Assembly (NCBI GenBank): GCA_038064975.1
Contig: JBBTRX010000007.1
Location: 59,026 to 123,025 of the forward strand
Source of the DNA: Patescibacteria group bacterium
GTDB taxonomy: Bacteria > Patescibacteriota > Minisyncoccia > UBA6257 > 1-14-0-10-40-38
Length of the DNA stretch: 64,000 nt
Direction: 5' to 3'
In this document: one piece after another, positions 859 to 64,000 of the stretch
How positions within the stretch are numbered: position 1 is the stretch's first letter
How the letters are laid out: every line of letters begins with the position of its first letter
Position numbers and translations under genes: made by a program
The notes under the pieces: generated by a model
The model's database searches: none
Told to the model about the DNA's origin: nothing
What the model saw: only the letters and a program-made list of their open reading frames with translations

Positions 859-908
859 TATTCTATTTTGCTCCCGAGCCAGGGATCGAACCTGGGACCG
901 TCGCCTTA

Positions 909-1459
909 CACTTGTCCTACTATTACTAATAGGGGTGGACTATATCATCGCCCATGAAGGGCGCGAGGTACTTCGCCTGCATCAATTAATATTTGATCGG
1001 CTACTCCCTTGCGGGATAGTCTCTACACCTTCTCTGATTACTATCAGAGCTTGGCTCGGGATTGCCCTTGGAAAGGGGTTTCCCCGAATTCACCTCGTTT
1101 GCAACCTAGATTGCTCTAGGAGGCTGCGTTATGCCGGCTTCCACTTCGCGATGACAATTGGCGCATATCAGGATACATTTATCGAGTTCTGATCTCACCC
1201 TCTCCCATGATCTGGTATAACCTTTATCTCCTACGCCGAAATCTTTTTCAGCTGGATTCAGGTGGTGAAAATCAAGAGCTCCTTGATATTTTTCGTATCC
1301 GCATATCTGGCATTGCCCGCCTTTGTAGGCAATAGCCATTGTTTTGATTTTGCGCCGGCGTTTTGCCACTGCACGAATAAGTTCTTCTCGCCGATCGGCA
1401 TATGTCCGCTTGTCAGCCATATATGGTAATTTTACCATTTTATAAGCCAAAGCGTGTTC
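909..1459 (-). mobile_element. Group I intron (551 nt) in the tRNA-Asn anticodon loop, with an HNH homing-endonuclease ORF
   Basis: It lies between U35 and U36 of the tRNA and ends with a 3'-terminal G. About 200 nt of ORF-free sequence at 909-1105 is long enough for a catalytic core. Confidence 0.6.
1106..1450 (-). CDS. HNH homing endonuclease (intron-encoded)
   Basis: Translation has CQICGY...HHLNP...CANCH, an HNH/zinc-finger nuclease motif. The ORF starts 9 nt inside the intron. Confidence 0.7.
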   Translation of the reverse strand: MAYKMVKLPYMADKRTYADRREELIRAVAKRRRKIKTMAIAYKGGQCQICGYEKYQGALDFHHLNPAEKDFGVGDKGYTRSWERVRSELDKCILICANCHREVEAGITQPPRAI

Positions 1460-1559
1460 ACAGGGCGCCGCTCTACCGCTGAGCTACTCGGGAATATTGA
1501 GTTATAGGCTGTTTTGTAAACAGCGTTACTATTATAATGAACTATACTTAAATCGCAAT

Positions 1560-7445: not shown

Positions 7446-8114
7446 ATATATAGCGATCCTAGCAAAGCAATCTATGTGGCGTCTACTGGGGAGTTCTAAT
7501 TCCGTAAGTATTTGGTGTTAGAATTTTTTAAGCGGATATGATACTTTCAAATTAGTTCCCCCACCACTGTACAACCAGGAGCATAGCGATGTGCGGAAGA
7601 GACAATGATGTAGTCGAGCGTCGCTGTAGCGTTTGCCATCAAACGTATTATGGAAGTTTGGGACACATAGGTTGTCCCGCTCAAAGGAGGAAAAACCCCC
7701 AACAAGCGGCGGAACAAGAGCAAGGACTATCAGTTCTCGAAATCGATGAAGCCCTCGATAAGGCGGTGAGGAGAGTCACTGGACCACCCCATCATCACTA
7801 GTCTTCTCAGTTTTCTCAATGAGCACCTGGCTGACCATGTGCTCTTTTTTTTATCTTCACAGATTTTTTATCTTTCATTGGTAATCTTTAATTCATGAAA
7901 ACAGTTACCACAATTCTCATTGTTGTAATAGTACTCGGTTTCGGATATTGGCTTTTTAGCCGTTATCTCGTCTCCAAACTAGACGGCAGTGGAGTTCGTA
8001 TTGAACAAATACGGACATATGTTTAGTAACTGCCTTCTCTAGGGAAATATATCAAGAAGATAAAATTCACGGCCGATTCACTCGTTAAGAGCTATACATT
8101 GAAGACCTAGGATC

Positions 8115-8984
8115 ATGAACAGGATCTTCCATCATCGGTTATTCTTCCCCATAGCACTTATCGTGCTTGTTGCTGTTTATTCTCTTGTCGTGTGGGGACC
8201 GGCCTTGGGAGAGCAATCAGATCCGCCATCTTTTCCAGCAAATATTGCGGAAAAGCAGGAAGACGACTCAATCACTATTCCATCTACTCCAAAACCAGTA
8301 CTTTTCCGCTACGTAGAAATTATAGATAGCTGTGGGCCCCATTATAATGGAGCCTGCGTTAATATGCGTTCCGGACCCGGAGAAACCTATCCCGTCGTTA
8401 GCAAACTCCGTACTGGCATGGTGCTGAAAGTTAAAGACAGCGTTACCACAGAAGGAGGTAAGACCTGGTACGAACTTCTACCCGATGATCATGTACGCTA
8501 TCCGGAACGGGTAACGTCAGATTGGTATGTCTCCGCTGAGGTCGTGCGCGTATTTTATGATGACGGAAGTCATACGCTTCAACGAGGAGGAACCGGATCA
8601 ACGATCGTAAAAACTATCGTTATCAATCGTTCTCTTCAAGAGCTCTACGCGTATGAAAATGGAACTTTAGTAATGCAAATACCTATTTCCACCGGAAAGG
8701 AATTTACTCCCACTCCTCGCGGCACATTTACGGTATACAAGATGACACCGAGCCGCTACATGCAGGGCCCATTGCCTGGCATCAGCGATCAGTACTACGA
8801 CTTGCCCGGCGTCCCTTGGAATCTGTACTTTACGAACGGCGGCGCAGCTATTCACGGCGCGTATTGGCACGATAATTTTGGGCAACCTTGGTCACACGGA
8901 TGCGTCAATCTTCCGCTTGACAAAGCGAAAGAACTTTACCTTTGGGCTGAAGCTGGCATGTCCGTGACGGTGAAAGATTCATGA
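8115..8984 (+). CDS. L,D-transpeptidase (YkuD domain) with SH3b-like domain
   Basis: Signal/TM. SH3_3-like block (YNGACVNMRSGPGETYPVVSKLRTGMVLKV). C-terminal HGAYWHDNFGQPWSHGCVNL catalytic His/Cys. Confidence 0.7.
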   Translation: MNRIFHHRLFFPIALIVLVAVYSLVVWGPALGEQSDPPSFPANIAEKQEDDSITIPSTPKPVLFRYVEIIDSCGPHYNGACVNMRSGPGETYPVVSKLRTGMVLKVKDSVTTEGGKTWYELLPDDHVRYPERVTSDWYVSAEVVRVFYDDGSHTLQRGGTGSTIVKTIVINRSLQELYAYENGTLVMQIPISTGKEFTPTPRGTFTVYKMTPSRYMQGPLPGISDQYYDLPGVPWNLYFTNGGAAIHGAYWHDNFGQPWSHGCVNLPLDKAKELYLWAEAGMSVTVKDS

Positions 8985-9024: not shown

Positions 9025-9768
9025 ATGCTATCATTTATCATCGCAATATTCACACTTTTAGGTACAATATTTCCCACTCCAGTTCCCGCACAAAGTATCC
9101 CCGTTCCTGCAACTCAAACTATAACAACTTCGTCTACTTCTACTCCGACTATCCCCGTCTCTCCATCTCAAAAAATATCAGCTTCCTCCACGACTCCTCC
9201 CGTTTCAACCACACCACAGCCCATTCCAGTAAAAAAGATTACATCGGGAACGCCCTCTACGAGCACTGTTCCTCATGTGCCATTTTATTCCCAATTTAAA
9301 GACATTACTTCCGTAGAATGGAAAAAAGTTGGATGCGGTATTGCGAGCTTAGCGATGGTATTGGATTACTATAAGCCCGCAGTTTCCGTAAATACCCTAC
9401 TCCAACAAGGCATTGATTCAGGAGCATATTTGAAAAATGCCGGCTGGACCTACAAAGGCTTGATTGGCGTAGCAAAAAGACACGGTTTAGATGGCACAAG
9501 TTATGACCTTGGGAAATCAGGCAAAGCGATAGCGTTTGAACAATTCAAAAAACAACTCGCGAATGGTCCCGTTATCGCATCGGTACATTATAAGTTTGAT
9601 CCGCAGAGTACCATTCCCCACCTCGTGGTTATTAATGGTATGAGTGGTGACTCGGTCTACTACAATGATCCGGCTGCAAACGGCGGGGAAAAGATAATTT
9701 CTTCCGATACATTCCTCAAAGCTTGGAAAAAAAGATTTATCGTTATACGGCCGGTAGATAAGGTTTAG
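9025..9768 (+). CDS. Secreted peptidase C39-like (C39_2) domain protein
   Basis: Signal peptide, Ser/Thr/Pro-rich linker, then VGCGIASLAMVLDYY (Cys) ... HLVVINGM (His) ... YYNDP. Confidence 0.6.
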   Translation: MLSFIIAIFTLLGTIFPTPVPAQSIPVPATQTITTSSTSTPTIPVSPSQKISASSTTPPVSTTPQPIPVKKITSGTPSTSTVPHVPFYSQFKDITSVEWKKVGCGIASLAMVLDYYKPAVSVNTLLQQGIDSGAYLKNAGWTYKGLIGVAKRHGLDGTSYDLGKSGKAIAFEQFKKQLANGPVIASVHYKFDPQSTIPHLVVINGMSGDSVYYNDPAANGGEKIISSDTFLKAWKKRFIVIRPVDKV

Positions 9769-9818: not shown

Positions 9819-10679
9819 ATGAAGAACAGTATTGGATTAGCTATATTTTCTGCACTTATCTTTTTTTCTTATACCACCGTATCAGCAATTGATTCGGCTT
9901 CTATTATTATTTCTCCCGTGACGGTTATCCAGGGAGAGCCGATACTGATAGCTGTTTCAAATGCAGATGCGTCTGAAGTACAGAAGATTTCGTTTGATAC
10001 TGTTTCGCTCGGCATTTTTACGTATCAGAATAAGCCCACTGCAATCGTGGGAATAGATCTTTATAAAAAGCCAGGGACGTATCCCGTTTTAGTTACGTTA
10101 GCCGATGGCCAGATTCTTGAAACGAAAGTTATTGTAGGTACACGAGAAAAGATAGAAGCGCCACTTGGCATTCCAGAAAAGCTCGGCGGAAATACTCCTG
10201 CAAGCCAGACTAAGCTCGTCACTTCCCTTGCCGCGGAAAACAAAAGTTTGGTAAAGCTCCGCACCGGAACAAAATCATTTTGGAAGGAAGCGTTCAGATT
10301 TCCACTCAAAGAAATCACGATTACGGACGACTATGGCTACTCCAGAACAACCGGAGCATATTCCATAGCTCACAAAGGCACTGATTTTCGCGCGAAGGAA
10401 GGCACAGCAATCAAGGCTATTAATCGTGGCGTGGTCCGCGTCGCGAAAGAATATCGGAACTACGGCAAGACGGTCGTCGTAGATCATGGACTAGGCCTAA
10501 CTTCCCTCTACATGCATCTTTCTAAAATCAAAGTAAACGTTGGCGAGCTTGTTTTGCCTGGACAAGTTATTGGTCTCAGCGGAAAGACGGGCTATGCCAC
10601 GAGTCCACATCTCCACCTTAGCGTGCGCCTCAACGATATTTCCATTGACCCGCTAAAGTTTTTTGAGCTTTTTAAATAA
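9819..10679 (+). CDS. M23 (LytM-type) peptidoglycan endopeptidase
   Basis: HKGTDFRAKEGTAI ... DHGLGLTSLYMHL ... SPHLHLSV: HxxxD and HxH zinc-ligand blocks. N-terminal signal. Confidence 0.8.
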   Translation: MKNSIGLAIFSALIFFSYTTVSAIDSASIIISPVTVIQGEPILIAVSNADASEVQKISFDTVSLGIFTYQNKPTAIVGIDLYKKPGTYPVLVTLADGQILETKVIVGTREKIEAPLGIPEKLGGNTPASQTKLVTSLAAENKSLVKLRTGTKSFWKEAFRFPLKEITITDDYGYSRTTGAYSIAHKGTDFRAKEGTAIKAINRGVVRVAKEYRNYGKTVVVDHGLGLTSLYMHLSKIKVNVGELVLPGQVIGLSGKTGYATSPHLHLSVRLNDISIDPLKFFELFK

Positions 10680-10823
10680 ATTTCGTATTTTTTTCTTCTT
10701 GCAGGAAACGCGGATACTTTTTTGACGAGCTTTTAAATGTTATCCACTTATTTTGAAATTATTTTTCTAGTACCCATGGTATTCTATTTTTAGTACTCAC
10801 CCAACGTACCGGAGGAGGTATGT

Positions 10824-11099
10824 ATGGCACAACAAGAACCCCTTTCCGTTCCGAGAGAATTGGAACAGGCAATAGAGCAATTGAAATGCCATTCACATAT
10901 TTCCGAAGTTGTTCGCGGGGTCTCTGTAAACTGTCTTCATCATCATAGGTCAGGTACCGTAGTATTTGAAAGAGAAAATCCCTACGGAATACGCGCGAGC
11001 GCGTACACAGAAAACAGAGTCTTGACGCTCTATCTGCACGTAGAACACTCGCATCGAGAAGAGATCAAACGATTCCTTTCGACGCTTACGCACGGATAG
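10824..11099 (+). CDS. Hypothetical His/Cys-rich protein in a GC-rich islet
   Basis: SD GGAGGAGG 5 nt upstream. CHSH/CLHHH/HVEHSH clusters. Followed by a terminator. Confidence 0.45.
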   Translation: MAQQEPLSVPRELEQAIEQLKCHSHISEVVRGVSVNCLHHHRSGTVVFERENPYGIRASAYTENRVLTLYLHVEHSHREEIKRFLSTLTHG

Positions 11100-11106
11100 C
11101 TGTGAG

Positions 11107-11140
11107 CCGCCACGCCCTTCGGGACGGAGGCGGTTTTTTA
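11107..11140 (+). terminator. Rho-independent terminator
   Basis: GCCGCCACGCCCTTCGGGACGGAGGCGG followed by TTTTTTA. Confidence 0.6.
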
Positions 11141-11151
11141 TTGTAGAAATA

Positions 11152-11179
11152 TTGACAATCCATAGTATTCTGCTATAAT
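11152..11179 (+). promoter_or_regulatory. Consensus sigma70-type promoter
   Basis: TTGACA (11152-11157), 16-nt spacer, TATAAT (11174-11179), about 50 nt upstream of the GTG start at 11230. Confidence 0.55.
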
Positions 11180-11229
11180 TTGCAACGGATCATTTTTACC
11201 CCCCAATACTTCAACGAGGAGAACTACAG

Positions 11230-11577
11230 GTGCAAAATCTCGGCGAACTACTCAAGGAAGCCGGCGTTCCAGGAGCCAGAGCAAAAACTGCGAAACCCCT
11301 GGAAAACGTACCTAAAGTGACTAGTCAAGAACTCGCGCAGATGACTGGCGGGAACTTTAATCTCGTGAGTGCGTCTGCGAGTCTTTTCCTGTCCTTTCCT
11401 GTGGACACTCGGGGCCGGTACATAGGTGCCTTTTGCCGAAACACGCCGGACGGGAAAAAGGGCCATGAGTTGTGGCTTGAATTCGAAACTCGCCAGCGTC
11501 GCAGTCCAGTGAAGCCCTATGTCTTCACGAATTTCGGGAGAGAAGTCCTCGCCGACGCAGGCTATCCGGTGGAGTGA
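11230..11577 (+). CDS. Hypothetical protein (GTG start) in a GC-rich islet
   Basis: GAGGAG SD 6 nt upstream of the GTG. Stop overlaps the next start (GTGA). Confidence 0.45.
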   Translation: MQNLGELLKEAGVPGARAKTAKPLENVPKVTSQELAQMTGGNFNLVSASASLFLSFPVDTRGRYIGAFCRNTPDGKKGHELWLEFETRQRRSPVKPYVFTNFGREVLADAGYPVE

Positions 11578-11789
11578 ATTCCTACAGAAAGGCAACCGTG
11601 CTACACAAGCGCACGACGGACTCGACTCAAGCAGCAGCTAACATCGCCGATCGTGAATACGATGTTGCGTGGAGAGATGCCGCATATCAAAAACAGGTAT
11701 ACGGTTTCACCTCCATCGACCCCGATGAAACATGGACGCACGTCTATCACGAAGTTCTGCAAGAACTCGTGGGATACTGCCCTTCCTGA
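11574..11789 (+). CDS. Hypothetical protein, translationally coupled to the upstream ORF
   Basis: GTGA start/stop overlap. Followed by a strong terminator. Confidence 0.4.
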   Translation: MNSYRKATVLHKRTTDSTQAAANIADREYDVAWRDAAYQKQVYGFTSIDPDETWTHVYHEVLQELVGYCPS

Positions 11790-11796
11790 TTCCCTT

Positions 11797-11840
11797 GCGC
11801 CGCCAATCCCTTACCGGATAGGCGGCGCTTCTTTTTTATT
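11797..11840 (+). terminator. Rho-independent terminator
   Basis: GCGCCGCC...GGCGGCGC followed by TTCTTTTTTATTTT. Confidence 0.6.
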
Positions 11841-11933
11841 TTCTAATGTAAATTAAATGTCCATCGCACTTTACTAAGTCACGATGTCTTCGTCGCTCCT
11901 CGCTCCTTGAGAAGTGCGTGGTACACTAGATTT

Positions 11934-12218
11934 ATGGACCAACTTATGAAAGCAGATATTTTCTTTTTTATATCTTCTATAGCAACTGTTGTGCTTACAG
12001 CGCTAGTTTCTATTCTTCTTTTCTATCTTATTAAAGCCGGAAAAAATCTTTCTGAACTTTCAGAGGTACTGAAAGGTAATATAAAAGAATCAAAAGAATT
12101 TATTCAAGATCTTAAGGAACGCTTAGAAGACAATATTGTATTTCGGCTCTTTTTTCCTTCACCACGGAAAAGAAAAGAAACTTCAGCGAAAAATCATAAA
12201 GGAAAGAGCAATACTTAA
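11934..12218 (+). CDS. Small membrane protein (hypothetical)
   Basis: One long hydrophobic helix then a charged coiled-coil-like tail. Start site uncertain (ORF opens at 11907). Confidence 0.4.
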   Translation: MDQLMKADIFFFISSIATVVLTALVSILLFYLIKAGKNLSELSEVLKGNIKESKEFIQDLKERLEDNIVFRLFFPSPRKRKETSAKNHKGKSNT

Positions 12219-12245
12219 CTATTACTCATAATTTTAAAAAAACCT

Positions 12246-12635
12246 ATGCCAAAGAAAACTACAGCAAACGGTGGTGGAAATGTAGCACTCATGGGAGCAA
12301 CGCTCGCGGGAATCGCGGCAACGGCTTATTTCTTCCTCGGGCCGAAGGGAAAGAAACACCAAAAACAAGCAAAGGCTTGGGCGATAAAGATGAAAGGCGA
12401 AGTTGTAGAAAAGCTGGAACGTGCTAGAGAAGTCAGCGAACCGATTTACCACCAAATCATTGATACGGTTGCAGCAAAGTATGGTGAAGAAAAGGATGCT
12501 AACCGTAATGAAATACGCGAATTAACAGAGGATTTAAAAAAACATTGGAAAACCTTAAGCGGCAAAGCGGGTGCCGTAAAGCACAAGGTAGTACGAGGCG
12601 CGAAGAAAGCTACGGCGAAAGTGACAAAAGAATAG
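12246..12635 (+). CDS. YtxH-like (DUF948) protein
   Basis: N-terminal MGATLAGIAATAYFFLGPKGKK followed by charged helices, typical of the YtxH family. Confidence 0.55.
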   Translation: MPKKTTANGGGNVALMGATLAGIAATAYFFLGPKGKKHQKQAKAWAIKMKGEVVEKLERAREVSEPIYHQIIDTVAAKYGEEKDANRNEIRELTEDLKKHWKTLSGKAGAVKHKVVRGAKKATAKVTKE

Positions 12636-13438
12636 GCGTGGAATCGCAATAGAAAAATGCCATCGTATGATGGCATTTTTCTTGCAAGAATCTAGTACAA
12701 CGCTCCGCCACTCTAGTTTTGGCTGCCGCTGTTGCTTCCGCTATTACTGCCGTCGTTGCTTCCGCCTGGCAAGTTCAGATCCACGTTAATATCGTTTGTC
12801 CCGTCATTGGGGGTCGTATCCGCGCGAACCGCAAACCACCAAACTCCGAATCCTACGAGAAGAAGGAGTACGATTACTATAAGGATAGTATTGGTACTGG
12901 ACACATTGTTATTCTCTTCCATGGTAATGTAATGGTTTTTTAATAGATATCGACCACTAATTCAGATATCTGAACGTTTTTCCCTAGCTTTTATAATGCG
13001 CCTAGGCGCATTAAGATGCTGTGAATTTCAAATAATAAAGAATGGACAATGAATAATAAAAATTAGCTGAAGTTAATATTTTTTGTTATGCTTCATTATA
13101 AGTTAATCCTTTTTCTACGATCATAAATATTATGAAATCAAGCTTTACTCCTTCCATCTTGAGCGTCATCCCGTTAGAAATTTTGTCCCACTCGCCATAT
13201 ACTATATCTATGAATCACCATAAATATAAACCAGCCCTACGGGGACTATTTCTAACGAAATGAGCAAACACAATAAAGACCAGTTCAATAATCCTGTTTC
13301 AAAAAAAGATATTGAAATGAAAAATATGCATCGCACGGTAGCCGCACGTTTGAATCCTGACGCGCATAGCTTTAATTTGAAACCCGTACGCAAACCAAAA
13401 GCGAGCGGTAAAAAAGGAAATAGATAACTCCCACTTAA

Positions 13439-13470
13439 AAGACCGCAAGATTCACTCAGCGGTCTTTTTT
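13439..13470. terminator. Bidirectional hairpin terminator
   Basis: AAAAGACCGCAAGATTCACTCAGCGGTCTTTTTTG. Confidence 0.5.
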
Positions 13471-13489
13471 GTATAGCCAGTAGTAATAC

Positions 13490-13518
13490 TTGACATTATT
13501 ACTATTGTATGCTATTAT
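13490..13518 (+). promoter_or_regulatory. Sigma70-type promoter for the 13566 gene
   Basis: TTGACA, 17-nt spacer, TATTAT. AGGAGGTG SD before the GTG at 13566. Confidence 0.5.
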
Positions 13519-13565
13519 TAAAGAGTTAGAAACTCCCCAAAACAAGCCTAGAAAGGAGGTGCGGA

Positions 13566-14147
13566 GTGAGCACTTTAACAATCGCAGGTTGCATCATTGG
13601 CCTTTCGGTCTATGTGCCTCTCTGCATTCAAGTTCTCTCAGGCAGAGCAAAACTCAATTTTGCCACCTGGATACTGTTCGCGATCCTCGATGGCATCACT
13701 GCGGGTGCAATCTACTACGCAGGAGGTAGCTACTTTCTACCAGCAGCCTATACTCTCGGAAGCCTGGTAACGTCGGTATGCGTTCTGAAATCCAAGAATT
13801 TCTCGTGGACGCGGTTCGAGACGATGGTCACGTTTCTCGTAGTCACGTGTCTCGTTGTCTGGATCATCTCTGGTCCGACCGTTGCTACAGTAGCAGGGAC
13901 AACAGCAGTTGCGATCGCCTGCATTCCTCAGTTCATCGATACTTATCGAGAACCGTGGAAGAGTCCCCTTTTGAGCTGGAGCGGATTTATGATCGCGAAT
14001 GCTCTTGTTACTGCAGGCGGCGCGGAATGGTCCATTGAAGAGAGACTTTACCCAGCGGTCTGCACGTTGCTTACGACCGCAGTCGTCCTTCTCACTGTCC
14101 GGCGGTACTGGACGAAAGAGCCTTCCACTATGGAATCAAACATCTAG
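13566..14147 (+). CDS. PQ-loop repeat family membrane protein
   Basis: Six or seven TM helices. Two loop motifs (PLCIQVLSG and CIPQFIDTYR) resemble duplicated PQ-loop signatures. Confidence 0.45.
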   Translation: MSTLTIAGCIIGLSVYVPLCIQVLSGRAKLNFATWILFAILDGITAGAIYYAGGSYFLPAAYTLGSLVTSVCVLKSKNFSWTRFETMVTFLVVTCLVVWIISGPTVATVAGTTAVAIACIPQFIDTYREPWKSPLLSWSGFMIANALVTAGGAEWSIEERLYPAVCTLLTTAVVLLTVRRYWTKEPSTMESNI

Positions 14148-14169
14148 AGTTACTCGCTCTGTACACTGA

Positions 14170-14212
14170 ACGAGCAGGAGCCCACTACTTCGGTCGCGGG
14201 CTCCTTTCTTTT
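14170..14212 (+). terminator. Rho-independent terminator
   Basis: GGAGCCCACTACTTCGGTCGCGGGCTCC followed by TTTCTTTTTTAT. Confidence 0.6.
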
Positions 14213-14253
14213 TTATATATTATTTGACAGTTATCCTCCTAAGCAGTAATTTT

Positions 14254-14904
14254 ATGCCAGATCCTCTCATCTTTCTCCAGTCCTTAACTCAAGGAGTTTC
14301 CGTGGACGCCTATCGCAAAAACGCACTACTCTCCGTTTACGACAAAGAAGGCATCGTAGAATTCGCCTGGGGACTCATTGATTTGGGATGGAATCTGTTT
14401 AGTTCAGGTGGAACTGCCAAAGTTCTCCAAGAAGCCGGTCTCGCCGTCACTGACATCGGTACCATTGTAGGACCGCCTATTCTCGGTCACCGTGTTGTCA
14501 CGCTCTCACGAGAACTCCATGCCGGACTTCTCGCGCGGAACACGCCGGAAGACCTTGCTGAACTTCAGCGGATCGGCGCGCCATACTTTGACCTTGTTTG
14601 CGTGGACCTGTATCCGCTTCAAGCGGAAACGGAACGTGAAGGGGCAACCATGGAAAGCGTGATTGAGAAAACCGACATCGGCGGACCGACTCTTCTTCGT
14701 TCTGGCGCAAAAGGTCGGCGTCTCGTCATTTCAAATCGTGAATCGCGAGAACTTGTCCTTCGACACCTTCAGGAAGGTACCGGCGACGATCCCGACCTTC
14801 GCCATATGTTTGCAATGGAAGCCGAACGGTTGGTCTCACGTTACTGTGATATCTCAGTACGATTTCTCGACTCTCACTTCGAGACCCTTCCTTCGGTTTC
14901 CTGA
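14254..14904 (+). CDS. Stand-alone MGS-like domain protein resembling the IMP-cyclohydrolase half of PurH
   Basis: ALLSVYDKEGIVEFAWGLIDLGWNLFSSGGTAKVLQEAGL...DLVCVDLYP...IEKTDIGGPTLLRSGAKG parallels the PurH N-terminal domain. No AICAR-transformylase half follows. Confidence 0.55.
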   Translation: MPDPLIFLQSLTQGVSVDAYRKNALLSVYDKEGIVEFAWGLIDLGWNLFSSGGTAKVLQEAGLAVTDIGTIVGPPILGHRVVTLSRELHAGLLARNTPEDLAELQRIGAPYFDLVCVDLYPLQAETEREGATMESVIEKTDIGGPTLLRSGAKGRRLVISNRESRELVLRHLQEGTGDDPDLRHMFAMEAERLVSRYCDISVRFLDSHFETLPSVS

Positions 14905-14960
14905 AAGGAAACACGCTCCGCCCCCCCGCACGACCCCTCGGTCGTGCGGCTTTTTTATTC
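14905..14960 (+). terminator. Rho-independent terminator
   Basis: CCGCACGACCCCTCGGTCGTGCGG followed by CTTTTTTATT. Confidence 0.6.
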
Positions 14961-15075
14961 ATCTCATTATTTCTTCATTGTTTAAGAAATACTATGAGCT
15001 TAGCTCCCATTATCTCTTGGGTAGCCATATTCATTTACATACGACAACATTACAACCAACCTGAGGAGTGGCACC

Positions 15076-16032
15076 ATGACAAACGTAGTCTGCTTTGGCG
15101 GAGGCACCGGCCTCCCCGTCCTTCTTTCGGGACTGAAGAAAAATCGTGATCTTGAAATATCTGCGATTGTGACTATGTTTGACAACGGAGGAAGCTCTGG
15201 TGAGCTCCGAAACCAATTTGGCATTCTCCCACCAGGAGATATCCTAAAATGTCTTCTTATGCTCTCTGAAAATGCTAAAGAAGAATCAATCCGAGATTTG
15301 TTTTTGTACCGCATTGAAGACGGCGACCCCCCGAATCACACCCCAGGCAATATGATGCTCGTTGGTCTCCAACAGACCTACGGAATCATGAAAGCCGTAA
15401 AGATATTACAAAAGATCTTTCGGACGAAAGGAAATGTTTATCCTGTTGCGATAGGATCAAGCCACCTGTGTTGCGCATATACAGATGGGGATGTCGTGCA
15501 TGGAGAGACAGAAGTGGATGAAGGGATCCGTAAAGGAAAGACTCCTCAACGCCTCTACCTTATGCCAACAGTACAACATAACGAGGATATTCAAGAAGTT
15601 ATCGGCAGTGCAGATGCTTTTTGTGTCGGTCCGGGGAGTTTGTACACCAGTATTATCCCTAATTTTCTTCCTCATGGAGTGAAGAGGATGCTCATGGATT
15701 CTACGGCACCTATCATATTCGTGAGCAACCTACTCACGGAAGGTAAGGGTATGACGAGTAGCGCTCTCCATCATCAGATAGAGATCGCTGAACAATACAT
15801 CGGCCGCGAAGTGACGGCGATCATCGCAAATACCAAACTTCCTCACGAAATGTCTTCGGAGATTCTGGAAAAGTATGCCAAGGAAAAAAAGTACCCCATT
15901 CTCTGCAATGGAGAACATGATCCGAGGTACGTCAAACGTGCCCTATGGACAGAACCGACGCTCGCACGGCATGATTCCAAGCTCCTCTCTTGTGCCGTTC
16001 ACGACGCGCTCAACCAACTTTGTCCCGCATAA
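15076..16032 (+). CDS. YvcK/CofD-family (UPF0052) gluconeogenesis-factor-like protein
   Basis: VVCFGGGTGLPVLLSGLK ... MFDNGGSSGELR ... ILPPGD: family-defining motifs. Confidence 0.7.
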   Translation: MTNVVCFGGGTGLPVLLSGLKKNRDLEISAIVTMFDNGGSSGELRNQFGILPPGDILKCLLMLSENAKEESIRDLFLYRIEDGDPPNHTPGNMMLVGLQQTYGIMKAVKILQKIFRTKGNVYPVAIGSSHLCCAYTDGDVVHGETEVDEGIRKGKTPQRLYLMPTVQHNEDIQEVIGSADAFCVGPGSLYTSIIPNFLPHGVKRMLMDSTAPIIFVSNLLTEGKGMTSSALHHQIEIAEQYIGREVTAIIANTKLPHEMSSEILEKYAKEKKYPILCNGEHDPRYVKRALWTEPTLARHDSKLLSCAVHDALNQLCPA

Positions 16033-62539: not shown

Positions 62540-62649
62540 ATGTATTTATAATACCATAATGTGTTGTGCTCAATTATTGTTGCATGTTGAAAATTTGTAT
62601 ATGAACTCGTATTCTTAGTATTAGCACGTTCTCGCGAAGGAGGCACGAC

Positions 62650-62841
62650 GTGACGAAACGTAAGAAAGTCATCGCAAACCGACAAAACAGTCCCAAGAAG
62701 AAACGAGATCGTTCTCGAAGAACTCGCAAAGAAATTGAAGCATTTTGGAAGGGAGTTGTTGATAAATTATGCGAAGGCATTGACGAGAGTACTCGCCTTA
62801 CTGCAAAAGATTACAACATCACCATCAATTATCGGGAGTAG
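62650..62841 (+). CDS. Small basic hypothetical protein (GTG start)
   Basis: AAGGAGG SD 7 nt upstream of the GTG. Bidirectional terminator directly after the stop. Confidence 0.45.
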   Translation: MTKRKKVIANRQNSPKKKRDRSRRTRKEIEAFWKGVVDKLCEGIDESTRLTAKDYNITINYRE

Positions 62842-62844
62842 AAA

Positions 62845-62880
62845 ACCAAAGAAGACCCTTGCGGGGGTCTCTTTTTATTA
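62845..62880. terminator. Bidirectional hairpin terminator
   Basis: GAAGACCCTTGCGGGGGTCTC flanked by A/T runs. Serves the plus-strand small gene and the minus-strand 16S. Confidence 0.55.
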
Positions 62881-63165
62881 TTACCTAACTATGAGTGCTT
62901 GCCTTACAGTTGCCCCAATCTTACGCGGTCCGACAAATGCCGAACTGACGCATCGTGACTTTAAGGCTCCACGACGAACACCTTCAAATGAAAATGAATC
63001 GACACCGACTATTCTCTTTAAAAAAGAAGAATAATCAAAGTTTAATTGATCCACGAGCAGCTTCCGCTACCCGTGCCTTGTTACGACTTAGCCCTTGTCA
63101 CCGAACCTACCCTAATCCAGCAAGCTGAACTTTAGGTATTCCCGGCTTCCTTGACTTGACGGGCG

Positions 63166-63700
63166 AATATTTTCTCAAAAACTGAGAATGAATGTTCCCA
63201 CTGCACAGACGGATTTCCCGTATGCAGCGAGCTCAATGCATCGTTTGCTTTAATGTGAGCAAGCTTTGTAAGCCTGAGTCGGTAAGATGTTCCCCTTCTT
63301 TGATTGCATCCATAATTTCGCAGAAAACTTTGAAATCATGCCTCTTAGATGGAAAACGTAACGGATATTTCTTGAAAAACGGAATAATAATGTTTTCCAA
63401 GTCTTTCCGATTAGCGACTTCAAACCGGTAGCAATGCTGGTGATTTTTTCTACTATCTTTCTGGAAATATACATTTCCACACTGGAAAAAATCTTTTACA
63501 GCATCAAGGACTGTCTTGTCTTTTTCTACCAGCTTGATATAGAACCGTGGTTCTATTCTTGCTCGCCTGATTCGTTCCGTAGATTCATTGATATTGCGAA
63601 CATACGCAGTAAAGCTTCCTTCGCCATCAACTAATCCAACGATATAATCAGGATTAAACATTGTATTGAGTGAGGGCCTTCTTCCGACCTTATATCGGAA
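63166..63700 (-). mobile_element. Intron-like insertion (probable group I intron) in 16S near E. coli position ~1395; 5' boundary uncertain
   Basis: Canonical 16S sequence resumes at CGCCCGUCA (plus 63165 downward). The insertion contains a complete LAGLIDADG ORF. Confidence 0.5.
63233..63661 (-). CDS. LAGLIDADG homing endonuclease (single-motif, I-CreI-like size)
   Basis: N-terminal YIVGLVDGEGSF LAGLIDADG motif; 142 aa. Confidence 0.75.
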   Translation of the reverse strand: MFNPDYIVGLVDGEGSFTAYVRNINESTERIRRARIEPRFYIKLVEKDKTVLDAVKDFFQCGNVYFQKDSRKNHQHCYRFEVANRKDLENIIIPFFKKYPLRFPSKRHDFKVFCEIMDAIKEGEHLTDSGLQSLLTLKQTMH

Positions 63701-64000
63701 TACTATGCCTCAGCTGACTTCTGACGCTGCGTTAGTTTTTATGATACCACGGCATCTTGCCATGGACAGCCATCAGATCTCCACAGGTCACGTAATATAC
63801 TATTCCAAACATCCGAGACGAACCTTTTCCCGTGATCTTCCTTATCCTCACCGCCCACTGATAAGTCGATCGATTCTCCGCGTGTTGCGGATACGTCTTG
63901 GCTGTTTTTTGCCGACAGATCCTCCATCTCGCCCCTTCACAGAGGCGGACTATCTTTGGCTACGCTCCGACTAGACTTCATCGGAGGAGTGGATTCAAAC

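Follow-up and report, generated by a model that had tools for sequence, protein, structure and literature searches.

By comparing a 16S rRNA gene with its relatives, we identified a putative mobile group II intron in the decoding site of the gene and a conserved A/U-rich sequence at its 3' end in the place of the anti-Shine-Dalgarno (anti-SD) sequence. The gene lies at one end of a 64,000-nucleotide stretch of DNA from a bacterium of the Patescibacteria group, or candidate phyla radiation (CPR), and this whole stretch is hereafter called the window. We consider it very probable that a IIC-like, LAGLIDADG-encoding intron sits between positions 1399 and 1400 of the 16S rRNA, that the anti-SD tail has been replaced, and that translation in this organism starts without Shine-Dalgarno (SD) pairing. 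An earlier note, made from the letters of the window alone, had drawn attention to this locus. Its observation proved largely real and was confirmed in part, and its interpretation holds for the intron but not for a second insertion or for SD use. Features of the intron, the 3' tail and the surrounding locus are described below.

The intron and its insertion site

At this locus a CPR bacterium of the Parcubacteria/Paceibacteria type, a lineage with which the names of its relatives (Paceibacteria, Colwell-, Brenner-, Lipton- and Portnoybacteria) agree, has the 3' end of its 16S rRNA gene. All coordinates are window positions, and minus-strand features are listed high to low in the running text. 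The parent locus, L001, is a Hainich groundwater contig of 381,697 bp (ENA ERZ1292643, Hain_H51_01um_R3_2) that continues past the window end in the 16S sense, and an L001 position equals 73662 minus the window position. In all, approximately 74 kb of the genome was read (the window and the rest of L001). As the earlier note had stated, the minus strand carries the 16S 3' domain. Rfam model RF00177 matches 63166..63052 (model positions 1390–1520, 62.5 bits, E 2.5e-15), and the blocks CGCCCGUCA and AAGUCGUAACAAGG, helix 45 (h45) with a GGAA loop, and GGAUCA are all present. The gene starts near L001 position 8096, runs to ...GAAUACGUUCUCGAGUCCUGUACUCAC at 9627, and resumes with CGCCCGUCA at 10497. 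The intervening 869 nucleotides (L001 9628–10496) correspond to 64034..63166, such that the first 34 nucleotides of the intron are outside the window. The block UGUACACAC, whose absence had been remarked upon, is indeed missing from the window, although for the trivial reason that the 5' exon sits 34 nucleotides beyond its end. Read in L001, this exon ends in ...CCUGUACUCAC, and the block has the lineage form UGUACUCAC.

The exon junction is fixed by intron-less alleles that read uninterrupted across the site. The predicted spliced sequence is ...CUCAC followed by YGCCCGUCA, and a search of metagenome contigs for GAGTCCTGTACTCAC-N-GCCCGTCA returned at least 120 intron-less matches, several of them from Hainich samples, that read ...CUCAC-Y-GCCCGUCA. 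Our alignment to the E. coli sequence places the insertion between positions 1399 and 1400. The 'universal' C1400 (window position 63165) is polymorphic in this clade (L011–L130): 71 intron-less alleles have C there and 49 have U. A1396 is U in all of them, though this position was set by the search pattern.

Homologous introns occupy the same site in nine CPR genomes of GTDB and in six further contigs found through exact-protein look-ups, giving 16 with the intron described here. All 16 begin with a 7-nucleotide 5' linker (mostly AAUAAAA) followed by a GCGCG-like motif; here these are AAUAAAA and GCGCG, both outside the window. The features of the intron and of the 3' exon are as follows.

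63166..64000, minus strand: group II (IIC-like) intron, the part within the window (junction from intron-less alleles; homologs in 15 other loci; covarying helices)
63847..63852, minus strand: exon-binding site, composed of EBS1 GUGAG (63851..63847) and G63852 (complementarity; comparison of 16 introns)
63675..63751, minus strand: domain II/III core, Rfam group-II-D1D4-1 (RF01998, 40.8 bits; gathering score 35)
63233..63661, minus strand: single-motif LAGLIDADG homing-endonuclease gene, 142 amino acids, in the domain IV loop (Pfam PF00961)
63197..63231, minus strand: domain V (RNAalifold, nine introns)
63169..63193, minus strand: domain VI (RNAalifold, nine introns)
63047..63165, minus strand: 16S rRNA 3' exon, consisting of C1400-GCCCGUCA, a shortened helix 44 (h44), AAGUCGUAACAAGG, h45 (GGAA loop) and GGAUCA (RF00177)

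The exon-binding site (EBS) fits both exon ends. EBS1 complements the last five bases of the 5' exon, CUCAC, and is present in 16 of 16 introns about 165–350 nucleotides into the intron (about 180 here). Both strands of this pairing are invariant, and hence EBS1 itself shows no covariation. The base immediately 5' of EBS1, however, varies with the start of the 3' exon: it is G wherever that exon begins with C (12 loci) and A wherever it begins with U (four loci). In the window G63852 pairs with the first 3'-exon base, C1400. Because this base tracks position 1400, it provides independent support for the 3' splice site and indicates that the ribozyme is matched to its host allele. Pairing of EBS1 with its intron-binding site (IBS1), together with one pair to the first 3'-exon base, is as expected for IIC and rns-1396 introns, which have no EBS2.

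The 5' part of the intron aligns throughout with nine homologous introns and contains covarying domain I hairpins, and the RF01998 match is also above the cut-off in L004, L008 and L009. The earlier note had taken the stretch at 63.7–64.0 kb for 16S-like blocks spaced about 250 nucleotides too far apart, and had suspected a second insertion there. The RF01998 match and helices covarying across ten introns instead identify this stretch as domains I–III, the ribozyme part of the same intron. A short basal stem, CUCAAU (63670..63665) with AUUGAG (63237..63232), encloses the endonuclease open reading frame (ORF) and therefore places it in domain IV. The corresponding stem in L005 is CUCUAAU/AUUAGAG. 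Domain V is a hairpin of 33–35 nucleotides with a lower helix of nine to ten base pairs, a two-nucleotide 3' bulge and an upper helix of four base pairs. It has a CGC triad (63229..63227) with a G.U wobble in the middle, and its loop is GAAAU rather than a strict tetraloop. In an RNAalifold prediction for nine introns, seven of the 15 pairs in domain V have compensatory changes and none is broken. Domain VI is an eight-pair hairpin, seven of its pairs showing compensatory changes, with a two-nucleotide bulge on the 5' strand only, and three nucleotides (63168..63166) separate it from the 3' splice site. Across domains V and VI, 12 of 23 predicted pairs show compensatory changes, and in none of these nine introns did the 3' strand of domain VI contain a bulged adenosine that could act as branch point.

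The 142-amino-acid LAGLIDADG ORF that had been noticed at 63661..63233 matches Pfam LAGLIDADG_1 (PF00961, E 1.3e-18, residues 7–117 of 142). Its sole LAGLIDADG motif reads IVGLVDGEG, and the acidic residue E14 aligns with the motif in structure 4lq0. The protein is as long as one half of the double-motif enzymes, and both halves of fungal mitochondrial structures of the I-OnuI family align to it (4lq0, E 2.6e-35). It may act as a homodimer. Homologs number 1262 at E ≤ 1e-5; the best 120 of these are mostly about 142 amino acids long and come from metagenomes or metagenome-assembled genomes, and the seven among them with an organism name are all from Patescibacteria.

These features lead us to classify the insertion as a putative mobile group II intron, IIC-like and LAGLIDADG-encoding, of the class named '16IS9' or 'rns-1396'. 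That an endonuclease-carrying intron of the kind known from CPR rRNA genes lies 5' of CGCCCGUC had been anticipated, and its type is group II rather than group I. The intron RNA would splice itself out, with exon ligation restoring the decoding-site strand ...GUACUCAC-C-GCCCGUCA. The lack of a branch adenosine, the 5' linker and the IIC-like core together make hydrolytic cleavage at the 5' splice site the probable first step, with release of a linear intron. The endonuclease would cut intron-less 16S rDNA at the predicted homing target, intron-less GAGTCCTGTACTCAC(C/T)GCCCGTCAAG, and the intron would thereby spread by DNA homing. I-ShaI, a related CPR rRNA enzyme, has been shown to be active (Tsurumaki 2024, PMC11270868).

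The 3' tail, the transcription unit and translation starts

After GGAUCA the sequence reads AUUAAACUUUG (GGAUCA-AUUAAACUUUGAUU...), and, in accordance with the earlier note, there is no CCUCC between GGAUCA and the terminator-like hairpin at 62871..62852. Instead of the canonical end GGAUCACCUCCUUA that accompanies SD-dependent initiation, the tail is AUUAAACU. CCUCC was not found in eight of the nine intron-bearing GTDB relatives (seven tails were read, and the 3' end of L003 was not reached), and the remaining one, L005, ends in GGAUCACCUCCUUU. The seven tails consist of a GGAUCA-like sequence followed by an A/U-rich tail that is mostly of the WUUAA type, with AUUAC in L004 and UUUCU in L009. 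CCUCC is also absent from all 106 intron-less metagenome alleles with a readable end, where the commonest tails are AUUAAACU (47) and AUUAAAUU (13). These relatives are distant, their 16S rRNAs being only 81–85% identical to that of the window. Conservation over 94 unique sequences amounts to 0.8–1.8 bits at the eight positions that follow GGAUCA, and to about 0.2 bits from the tenth position onward. The anti-SD octamer CCUCCUUA has been replaced by a conserved A/U-rich octamer of equal length, AUUAAAYU, that is fixed across a deep clade. Because conservation stops at the canonical tail length, we predict that the mature 16S rRNA ends eight to nine nucleotides after GGAUCA (...GGAUCAAUUAAACU).

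The missing anti-SD is a lineage trait and not a processing puzzle. A terminal insertion, special processing or an atypical gene copy, which had been suggested as the cause, is not needed, because AUUAAAYU is the norm of the clade (106 of 106 intron-less relatives) and the genes do not use SD sequences. It had also been proposed that the gene be aligned with a covariance model. Such a whole-gene alignment reports a contiguous, 'complete' 16S (model positions 1–1533) ending at L001 position 9679, inside the intron. This result is, however, an artifact. In the alignment, 106 positions of the model (h44) and the whole of h45 are skipped, and GcugGAUcACCUCCUUu (GGAUCACCUCCUU) is pinned onto intron sequence GUUUGAAUCCACUCCUCC, which is a covarying domain I hairpin (GUGG/CCAC, GCGG/CCGC, ACCG/CGGU) that leads into the 5' strand of a second covarying helix. 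The intron sequence CUCCUCC (L001 9673–9679) was considered as a displaced anti-SD and rejected, as it forms the 5' strand of a covarying domain I helix (CCUCC/GGAG, CCUUC/GAAG, UCUCU/AGAGA).

The following elements at the 3' end of the gene define the tail and the transcription unit.

63039..63046, minus strand: 3' tail AUUAAACU in place of the anti-SD octamer CCUCCUUA, with the predicted mature 3' end (conservation in 94 unique relatives)
62951..62976, minus strand: conserved 16S-trailer hairpin with stem CGUCGUG/CACGAUG and loop GAGCCUUAAAGU (recurs in relatives)
62895..62919, minus strand: trailer strand of a leader-trailer processing stem, AUUGGGGCAACUGUAAGG..GCAC (pairs with the 16S leader CUUUACAGUUGUCCCAAU)
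62852..62871, minus strand: terminator-like hairpin closing the 16S transcription unit, usable from the opposite strand too (consensus scan)

A consensus scan found a promoter-like site for the 16S gene at L001 7817–7844, and an Rfam scan of the whole window found no 23S gene. As the earlier note had it, then, the gene is followed by a terminator-like hairpin and not by 23S. These consensus and energy matches support a 16S gene that would be transcribed alone, unlinked from 23S, between a promoter and a terminator of its own. The leader partner CUUUACAGUUGUCCCAAU lies outside the window at L001 positions ~8010–8043, and its duplex with the trailer has a predicted energy of -68.8 kcal/mol, compared with -43.3 ± 3.3 for shuffled trailers. 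The precursor would thus be closed by a long stem of the type cut by RNase III. The pairing UUGGGRCAACU : AGUUGUCCCAA recurs in L004, L134 and L136, which argues that the stem is a normal closure with no concealed exon inside the precursor. The trailer hairpin, with a covarying stem and the loop GAGCYUUAAGU, is also found in L004, L006, L007, L008 and L136, and has no match in Rfam.

In contrast to the claim that many genes here have strong AGGAGG sites, SD-like sequences are no more frequent upstream of starts than elsewhere. We counted SD-like 4-mers 4–18 nucleotides upstream of starts and in equal-sized coding windows, and found them in 6 of 56 starts and 6 of 56 coding controls (approximately 11% in each; window and L001 beyond its end). 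The profile of duplex energy with the canonical anti-SD is flat for these 56 genes (-1.75 versus -1.65 kcal/mol). The same is true of 346 genes flanking 119 anti-SD-less relatives, where SD-like 4-mers occur at about 10% in both sets and the energy profile is flat. By comparison, the same script applied to 49 kb of E. coli gave 53% versus 12% and an energy trough of -5.26 versus -2.16 kcal/mol. Most of the few good SD-like sites in the window cluster at ~10,800–16,000 on the plus strand, where AGGAGG or AGGAG precedes, at the proper distance, the ORFs at 10824, 11230, 13566, ~14224 and 15076. These ORFs encode mostly hypothetical proteins, and the cluster could reflect foreign DNA or chance.

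A different signal is present at the starts. Hexamers of the -10 type (TATAAT, TATACT and similar) are three- to five-fold enriched in the last 20 nucleotides before ATG, and these boxes peak sharply six to nine nucleotides before it. A -10 box ending 4–12 nucleotides before ATG is found in roughly 24% of 344 genes of relatives and 18% of the 56 genes here, as opposed to 2% in the E. coli control. In-frame stop codons were rejected as the source of this peak: boxes free of stops keep it, there is no 3-periodicity, and it holds in genes whose in-frame stop is at least 30 nucleotides upstream. Enrichment of GTTAA/TTAAG upstream of the window genes was also set aside, as it probably derives from the stop codons of upstream genes and is not reproduced in the pooled set. 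The position of the -10 boxes suggests that leaderless or near-leaderless mRNAs are widespread in the anti-SD-less clade. Translation would then begin independently of SD pairing, for the most part on mRNAs with no leader or a very short one. A literature search on leaderless translation in CPR bacteria found nothing relevant, and it may still have been reported.

Alternative explanations

Several points weigh against an intron of this type combined with SD-free initiation. The 5' motif of the intron is GCGCG behind a linker and not a terminal GUGYG, which nevertheless fits the linker-bearing variant of group II introns. A search of 121 nucleotides with RF00029, the Rfam model of domains V and VI, found nothing even at E ≤ 10, and the group II assignment rests for this reason on RF01998, comparative structure and the literature. 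That the RNA splices, that its exons are ligated, that hydrolysis comes first and where exactly the mature rRNA ends are all predictions from sequence. A few ORFs do have a good AGGAGG at the right spacing (for example, those at 10824, 13566 and 62650), with the signal for the class as a whole at background. The gene calls are crude (longest non-overlapping ORFs, first ATG), and the SD and -10 percentages given above are approximate. Lastly, with approximately 74 kb read, the genome could hold a second 16S copy elsewhere.

Such a second, normal copy with an anti-SD could serve translation if the 16S gene of the window were atypical or decaying. The gene carries several insertions, and only part of the genome was read. 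However, its tail recurs in conserved form throughout a deep clade, no damage is seen in h44, h45 or the blocks of the decoding site, and the intron has kept a domain V and exon-binding sites that suit the allele in the window. SD use is at background both in the window and in the 346 genes of relatives, and CPR genomes usually have one rRNA copy (PMC11270868), all of which makes a decaying copy highly improbable. We give next to no credence to the idea that a terminal intron or insertion parts GGAUCA from a downstream CCUCCUU exon, with mature rRNA retaining its anti-SD. Introns are frequent in CPR 16S genes, the L003 16S (~3090 onward) has a further insertion after AAGUCGUA at about position 1499, and CCUCCUU does occur approximately 400 nucleotides downstream on the same strand (62643..62637). 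As a 3' exon this sequence was nonetheless rejected, because it lies past the terminator, the leader-trailer stem closes the precursor before it is reached, and it is the complement of the AGGAGG of an ORF on the opposite strand. Moreover, no CCUCC lies between GGAUCA and the terminator, the trailer has no Rfam intron match, AUUAAAYU directly follows GGAUCA in 106 of 106 relatives, and the genes do not use SD sequences.

The remaining alternatives concern the nature of the insertion and of the tail. Many CPR rRNA insertions lack a recognizable ribozyme (PMC11270868), and the insertion might likewise be an intervening sequence that is retained, or excised without ligation to leave a fragmented 16S rRNA; the missing RF00029 match and branch adenosine would agree with this. 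A nearly canonical domain V with compensatory changes, and an exon-binding site that suits the ends of both exons and changes in step with the C/U polymorphism at position 1400, point instead to a self-splicing intron. In addition, a break or an 869-nucleotide insert in the decoding center would be unlikely to be tolerated, and the related 16S introns of Thiomargarita are reportedly called self-splicing in the title of a 2012 report by Salman. We therefore regard an intervening sequence as unlikely. The tail, for its part, could be a new anti-SD that pairs with an A/U-rich element (such as UUUAAU) upstream of starts, as it is conserved at exactly the canonical length, upstream regions are A/U-rich, and TTAAT is found in 29 of 400 upstream regions compared with 15 further upstream. 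Overlapping -10 boxes and A/U richness explain this small excess, however, and there is no trough of pairing with the tail (-1.14 versus -0.81 to -0.89 in the window; -0.87 versus -1.01 for the 346 pooled genes). Nor are complementary 6-mers enriched (GTTTAA, 3 versus 6; AGTTTA, 5 versus 3), and a new anti-SD is thus very unlikely. A group II intron and a replaced tail without SD pairing account best for these data.

Neighboring features and relation to known systems

The same 16S gene has two further expansions in L001, outside the window. One is an insertion of ~170 nucleotides in the h40 region (~9225–9395), flanked by the inverted repeat UCUUUGC...GCAAAGA, and the other is a 39-nucleotide expansion in h6 (~8170–8215). 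Neither has an ORF or an Rfam match. Extra LAGLIDADG_2 ORFs lie within the 16S region in L132 and L137. Gene order around the 16S gene is kept in distant relatives (L001 1–20429; L132–L137). L31 is upstream of it in L001 and L136, a stand-alone response-regulator receiver lies directly downstream in five of six further loci, and pilin or type IV pilus genes follow the receiver in L001 and L133. Among the pilus genes of L001 are two PF05635 '23S rRNA intervening sequence protein' genes. A basic ORF of 63 amino acids (62650..62841, plus strand) is convergent with the 16S gene. Its AGGAGG, six nucleotides before a GTG start, has as its complement the sole CCUCCUU in the vicinity of the 16S gene. 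The ORF has no Pfam match and is missing from the gene calls of the public record.

At the other end of the window we found a split tRNA gene (869..1493, minus strand), where ARAGORN reports no tRNAs in the 64 kb. Its parts are listed below.

1493..1460, minus strand: 5' exon of the split tRNA
1459..909, minus strand: group I intron of ~551 nucleotides in the split tRNA (RF00028, 59.3 bits at 1184..916)
1483..1106, minus strand: HNH-like ORF in the group I intron (Pfam HNH, E 8.6e-4, below the cut-off)
908..~869, minus strand: 3' exon of the split tRNA

The joined exons have the anticodon loop CU-GUU-AA, which identifies a tRNA-Asn(GUU). Group I introns in tRNA-Asn and tRNA-Asp of Patescibacteria are a described class that this gene matches (PMC13011429).

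A LAGLIDADG group II intron at 16S position 1400 and a missing anti-SD are both documented traits of CPR bacteria and Parcubacteria, and the locus is no new system. In a survey of CPR rRNA insertions, group II intron-like elements were found only at 16S position 1400 ('16IS9'), in 53 cases, 39 of which have LAGLIDADG endonucleases and none a reverse transcriptase (Tsurumaki 2024, PMC11270868). The intron described here agrees with this class in host group, site (1399/1400), Rfam group II signal, single-domain LAGLIDADG_1 ORF and lack of a reverse transcriptase. There is no substantive difference, and it is another instance of the class. The details added here are the exact junction, the 7-nucleotide linker, EBS1 with its covarying neighbor base, the CGC triad, a domain VI without a branch adenosine, and the domain IV stem around the ORF.

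The rns-1396 intron is said to have been first seen in Thiomargarita, by Salman and colleagues in 2012. Judged from descriptions, it shares with the present intron an insertion in the 16S decoding site, a CGC triad (IIC), a 5' linker and a single-motif endonuclease in domain IV. The hosts differ, being Patescibacteria here and Gammaproteobacteria (Thiotrichaceae) there, and the site is numbered 1396 rather than 1399/1400, which may be mere convention. In the rns-1396 IIC-LHE (LAGLIDADG homing endonuclease) family all introns have the 5' linker, lack EBS2 and carry the single-motif endonuclease in domain IV, and the family has been reported only from Thiotrichaceae (Liu 2026, PMC13190283). In LAGLIDADG group II introns that have such a linker the branch motif has been lost, and 5' insertions accompany this loss (PMC4424553; PMC13190283). 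Likeness extends to the LAGLIDADG group II introns of fungal mitochondria, which also reside in rRNA genes, encode LAGLIDADG proteins instead of reverse transcriptases, have extra nucleotides before the 5' motif, have lost the branch-site motif and EBS2, and carry a homologous endonuclease of the I-OnuI family (Toor and Zimmerly 2002; Li et al. 2011; Mullineux et al. 2010). Those introns differ in that they belong to subgroup IIB1, mostly have double-motif enzymes and occupy other rRNA sites, whereas the intron of the window is IIC-like, single-motif and bacterial.

Initiation without SD pairing is known in other settings. Bacteroidota have an anti-SD but use it little, Actinobacteria and Deinococcus are rich in leaderless mRNAs, and the mRNAs of mammalian mitochondria are leaderless. 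Loss of the anti-SD joined with signs of leaderless mRNAs resembles the situation in mitochondria. In contrast to these, the lineage described here is a free-standing bacterial one, the 16S 3' domain is otherwise bacterial, and the tail is replaced and not truncated. The mammalian mitochondrial 12S rRNA lacks an anti-SD (PMC10582724). Among Parcubacteria, the anti-SD motif was detected in only 48%, and the lineages without it overlap those without uL1 (Tsurumaki 2022, PMC9297842). The 16S rRNAs described there likewise lack CCUCCU at the 3' end and their lineage fits. As read here, that paper reports absence only, to which we add the conserved AUUAAAYU, background SD use and the -10 boxes abutting starts. 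Loss of Era, a protein that binds GAUCACCUCC, is also common to most CPR bacteria (PMC10582724). In Paceibacteria rplA and der are missing, and CPR classes, Paceibacteria among them, are mostly without era (PMC12641178). Four points were not found in the literature compared and are possibly new: that the replacement tail is conserved, that SD use is absent when measured, that -10 boxes abut the starts, and that the EBS1 neighbor covaries with position 1400.

Genes of this kind mislead annotation. The covariance model calls a 16S 'complete' whose reported end falls within the intron, and the tRNA gene of the same window, split by its own intron, is overlooked by tRNA finders. With its junction, exon-binding covariation and co-existing intron-less alleles in the same aquifer, the locus is a clean natural system for group II homing into the decoding center. 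We also offer, as a tentative and rather doubtful proposal, that AUUAAAYU is a selected replacement with its own function in a class- or order-level clade of Paceibacteria, tied to a clade-wide switch to leaderless mRNAs. If so, the octamer might be a docking site for a protein or initiation factor, a signal for 3'-end maturation in a lineage mostly without Era, or an element favoring 70S initiation on leaderless mRNAs, and a bacterial lineage of the free-living type would have switched wholesale to SD-independent, largely leaderless initiation. The conserved tail, background SD use and abutting -10 boxes together give a testable picture of SD-free initiation in a large uncultured clade.

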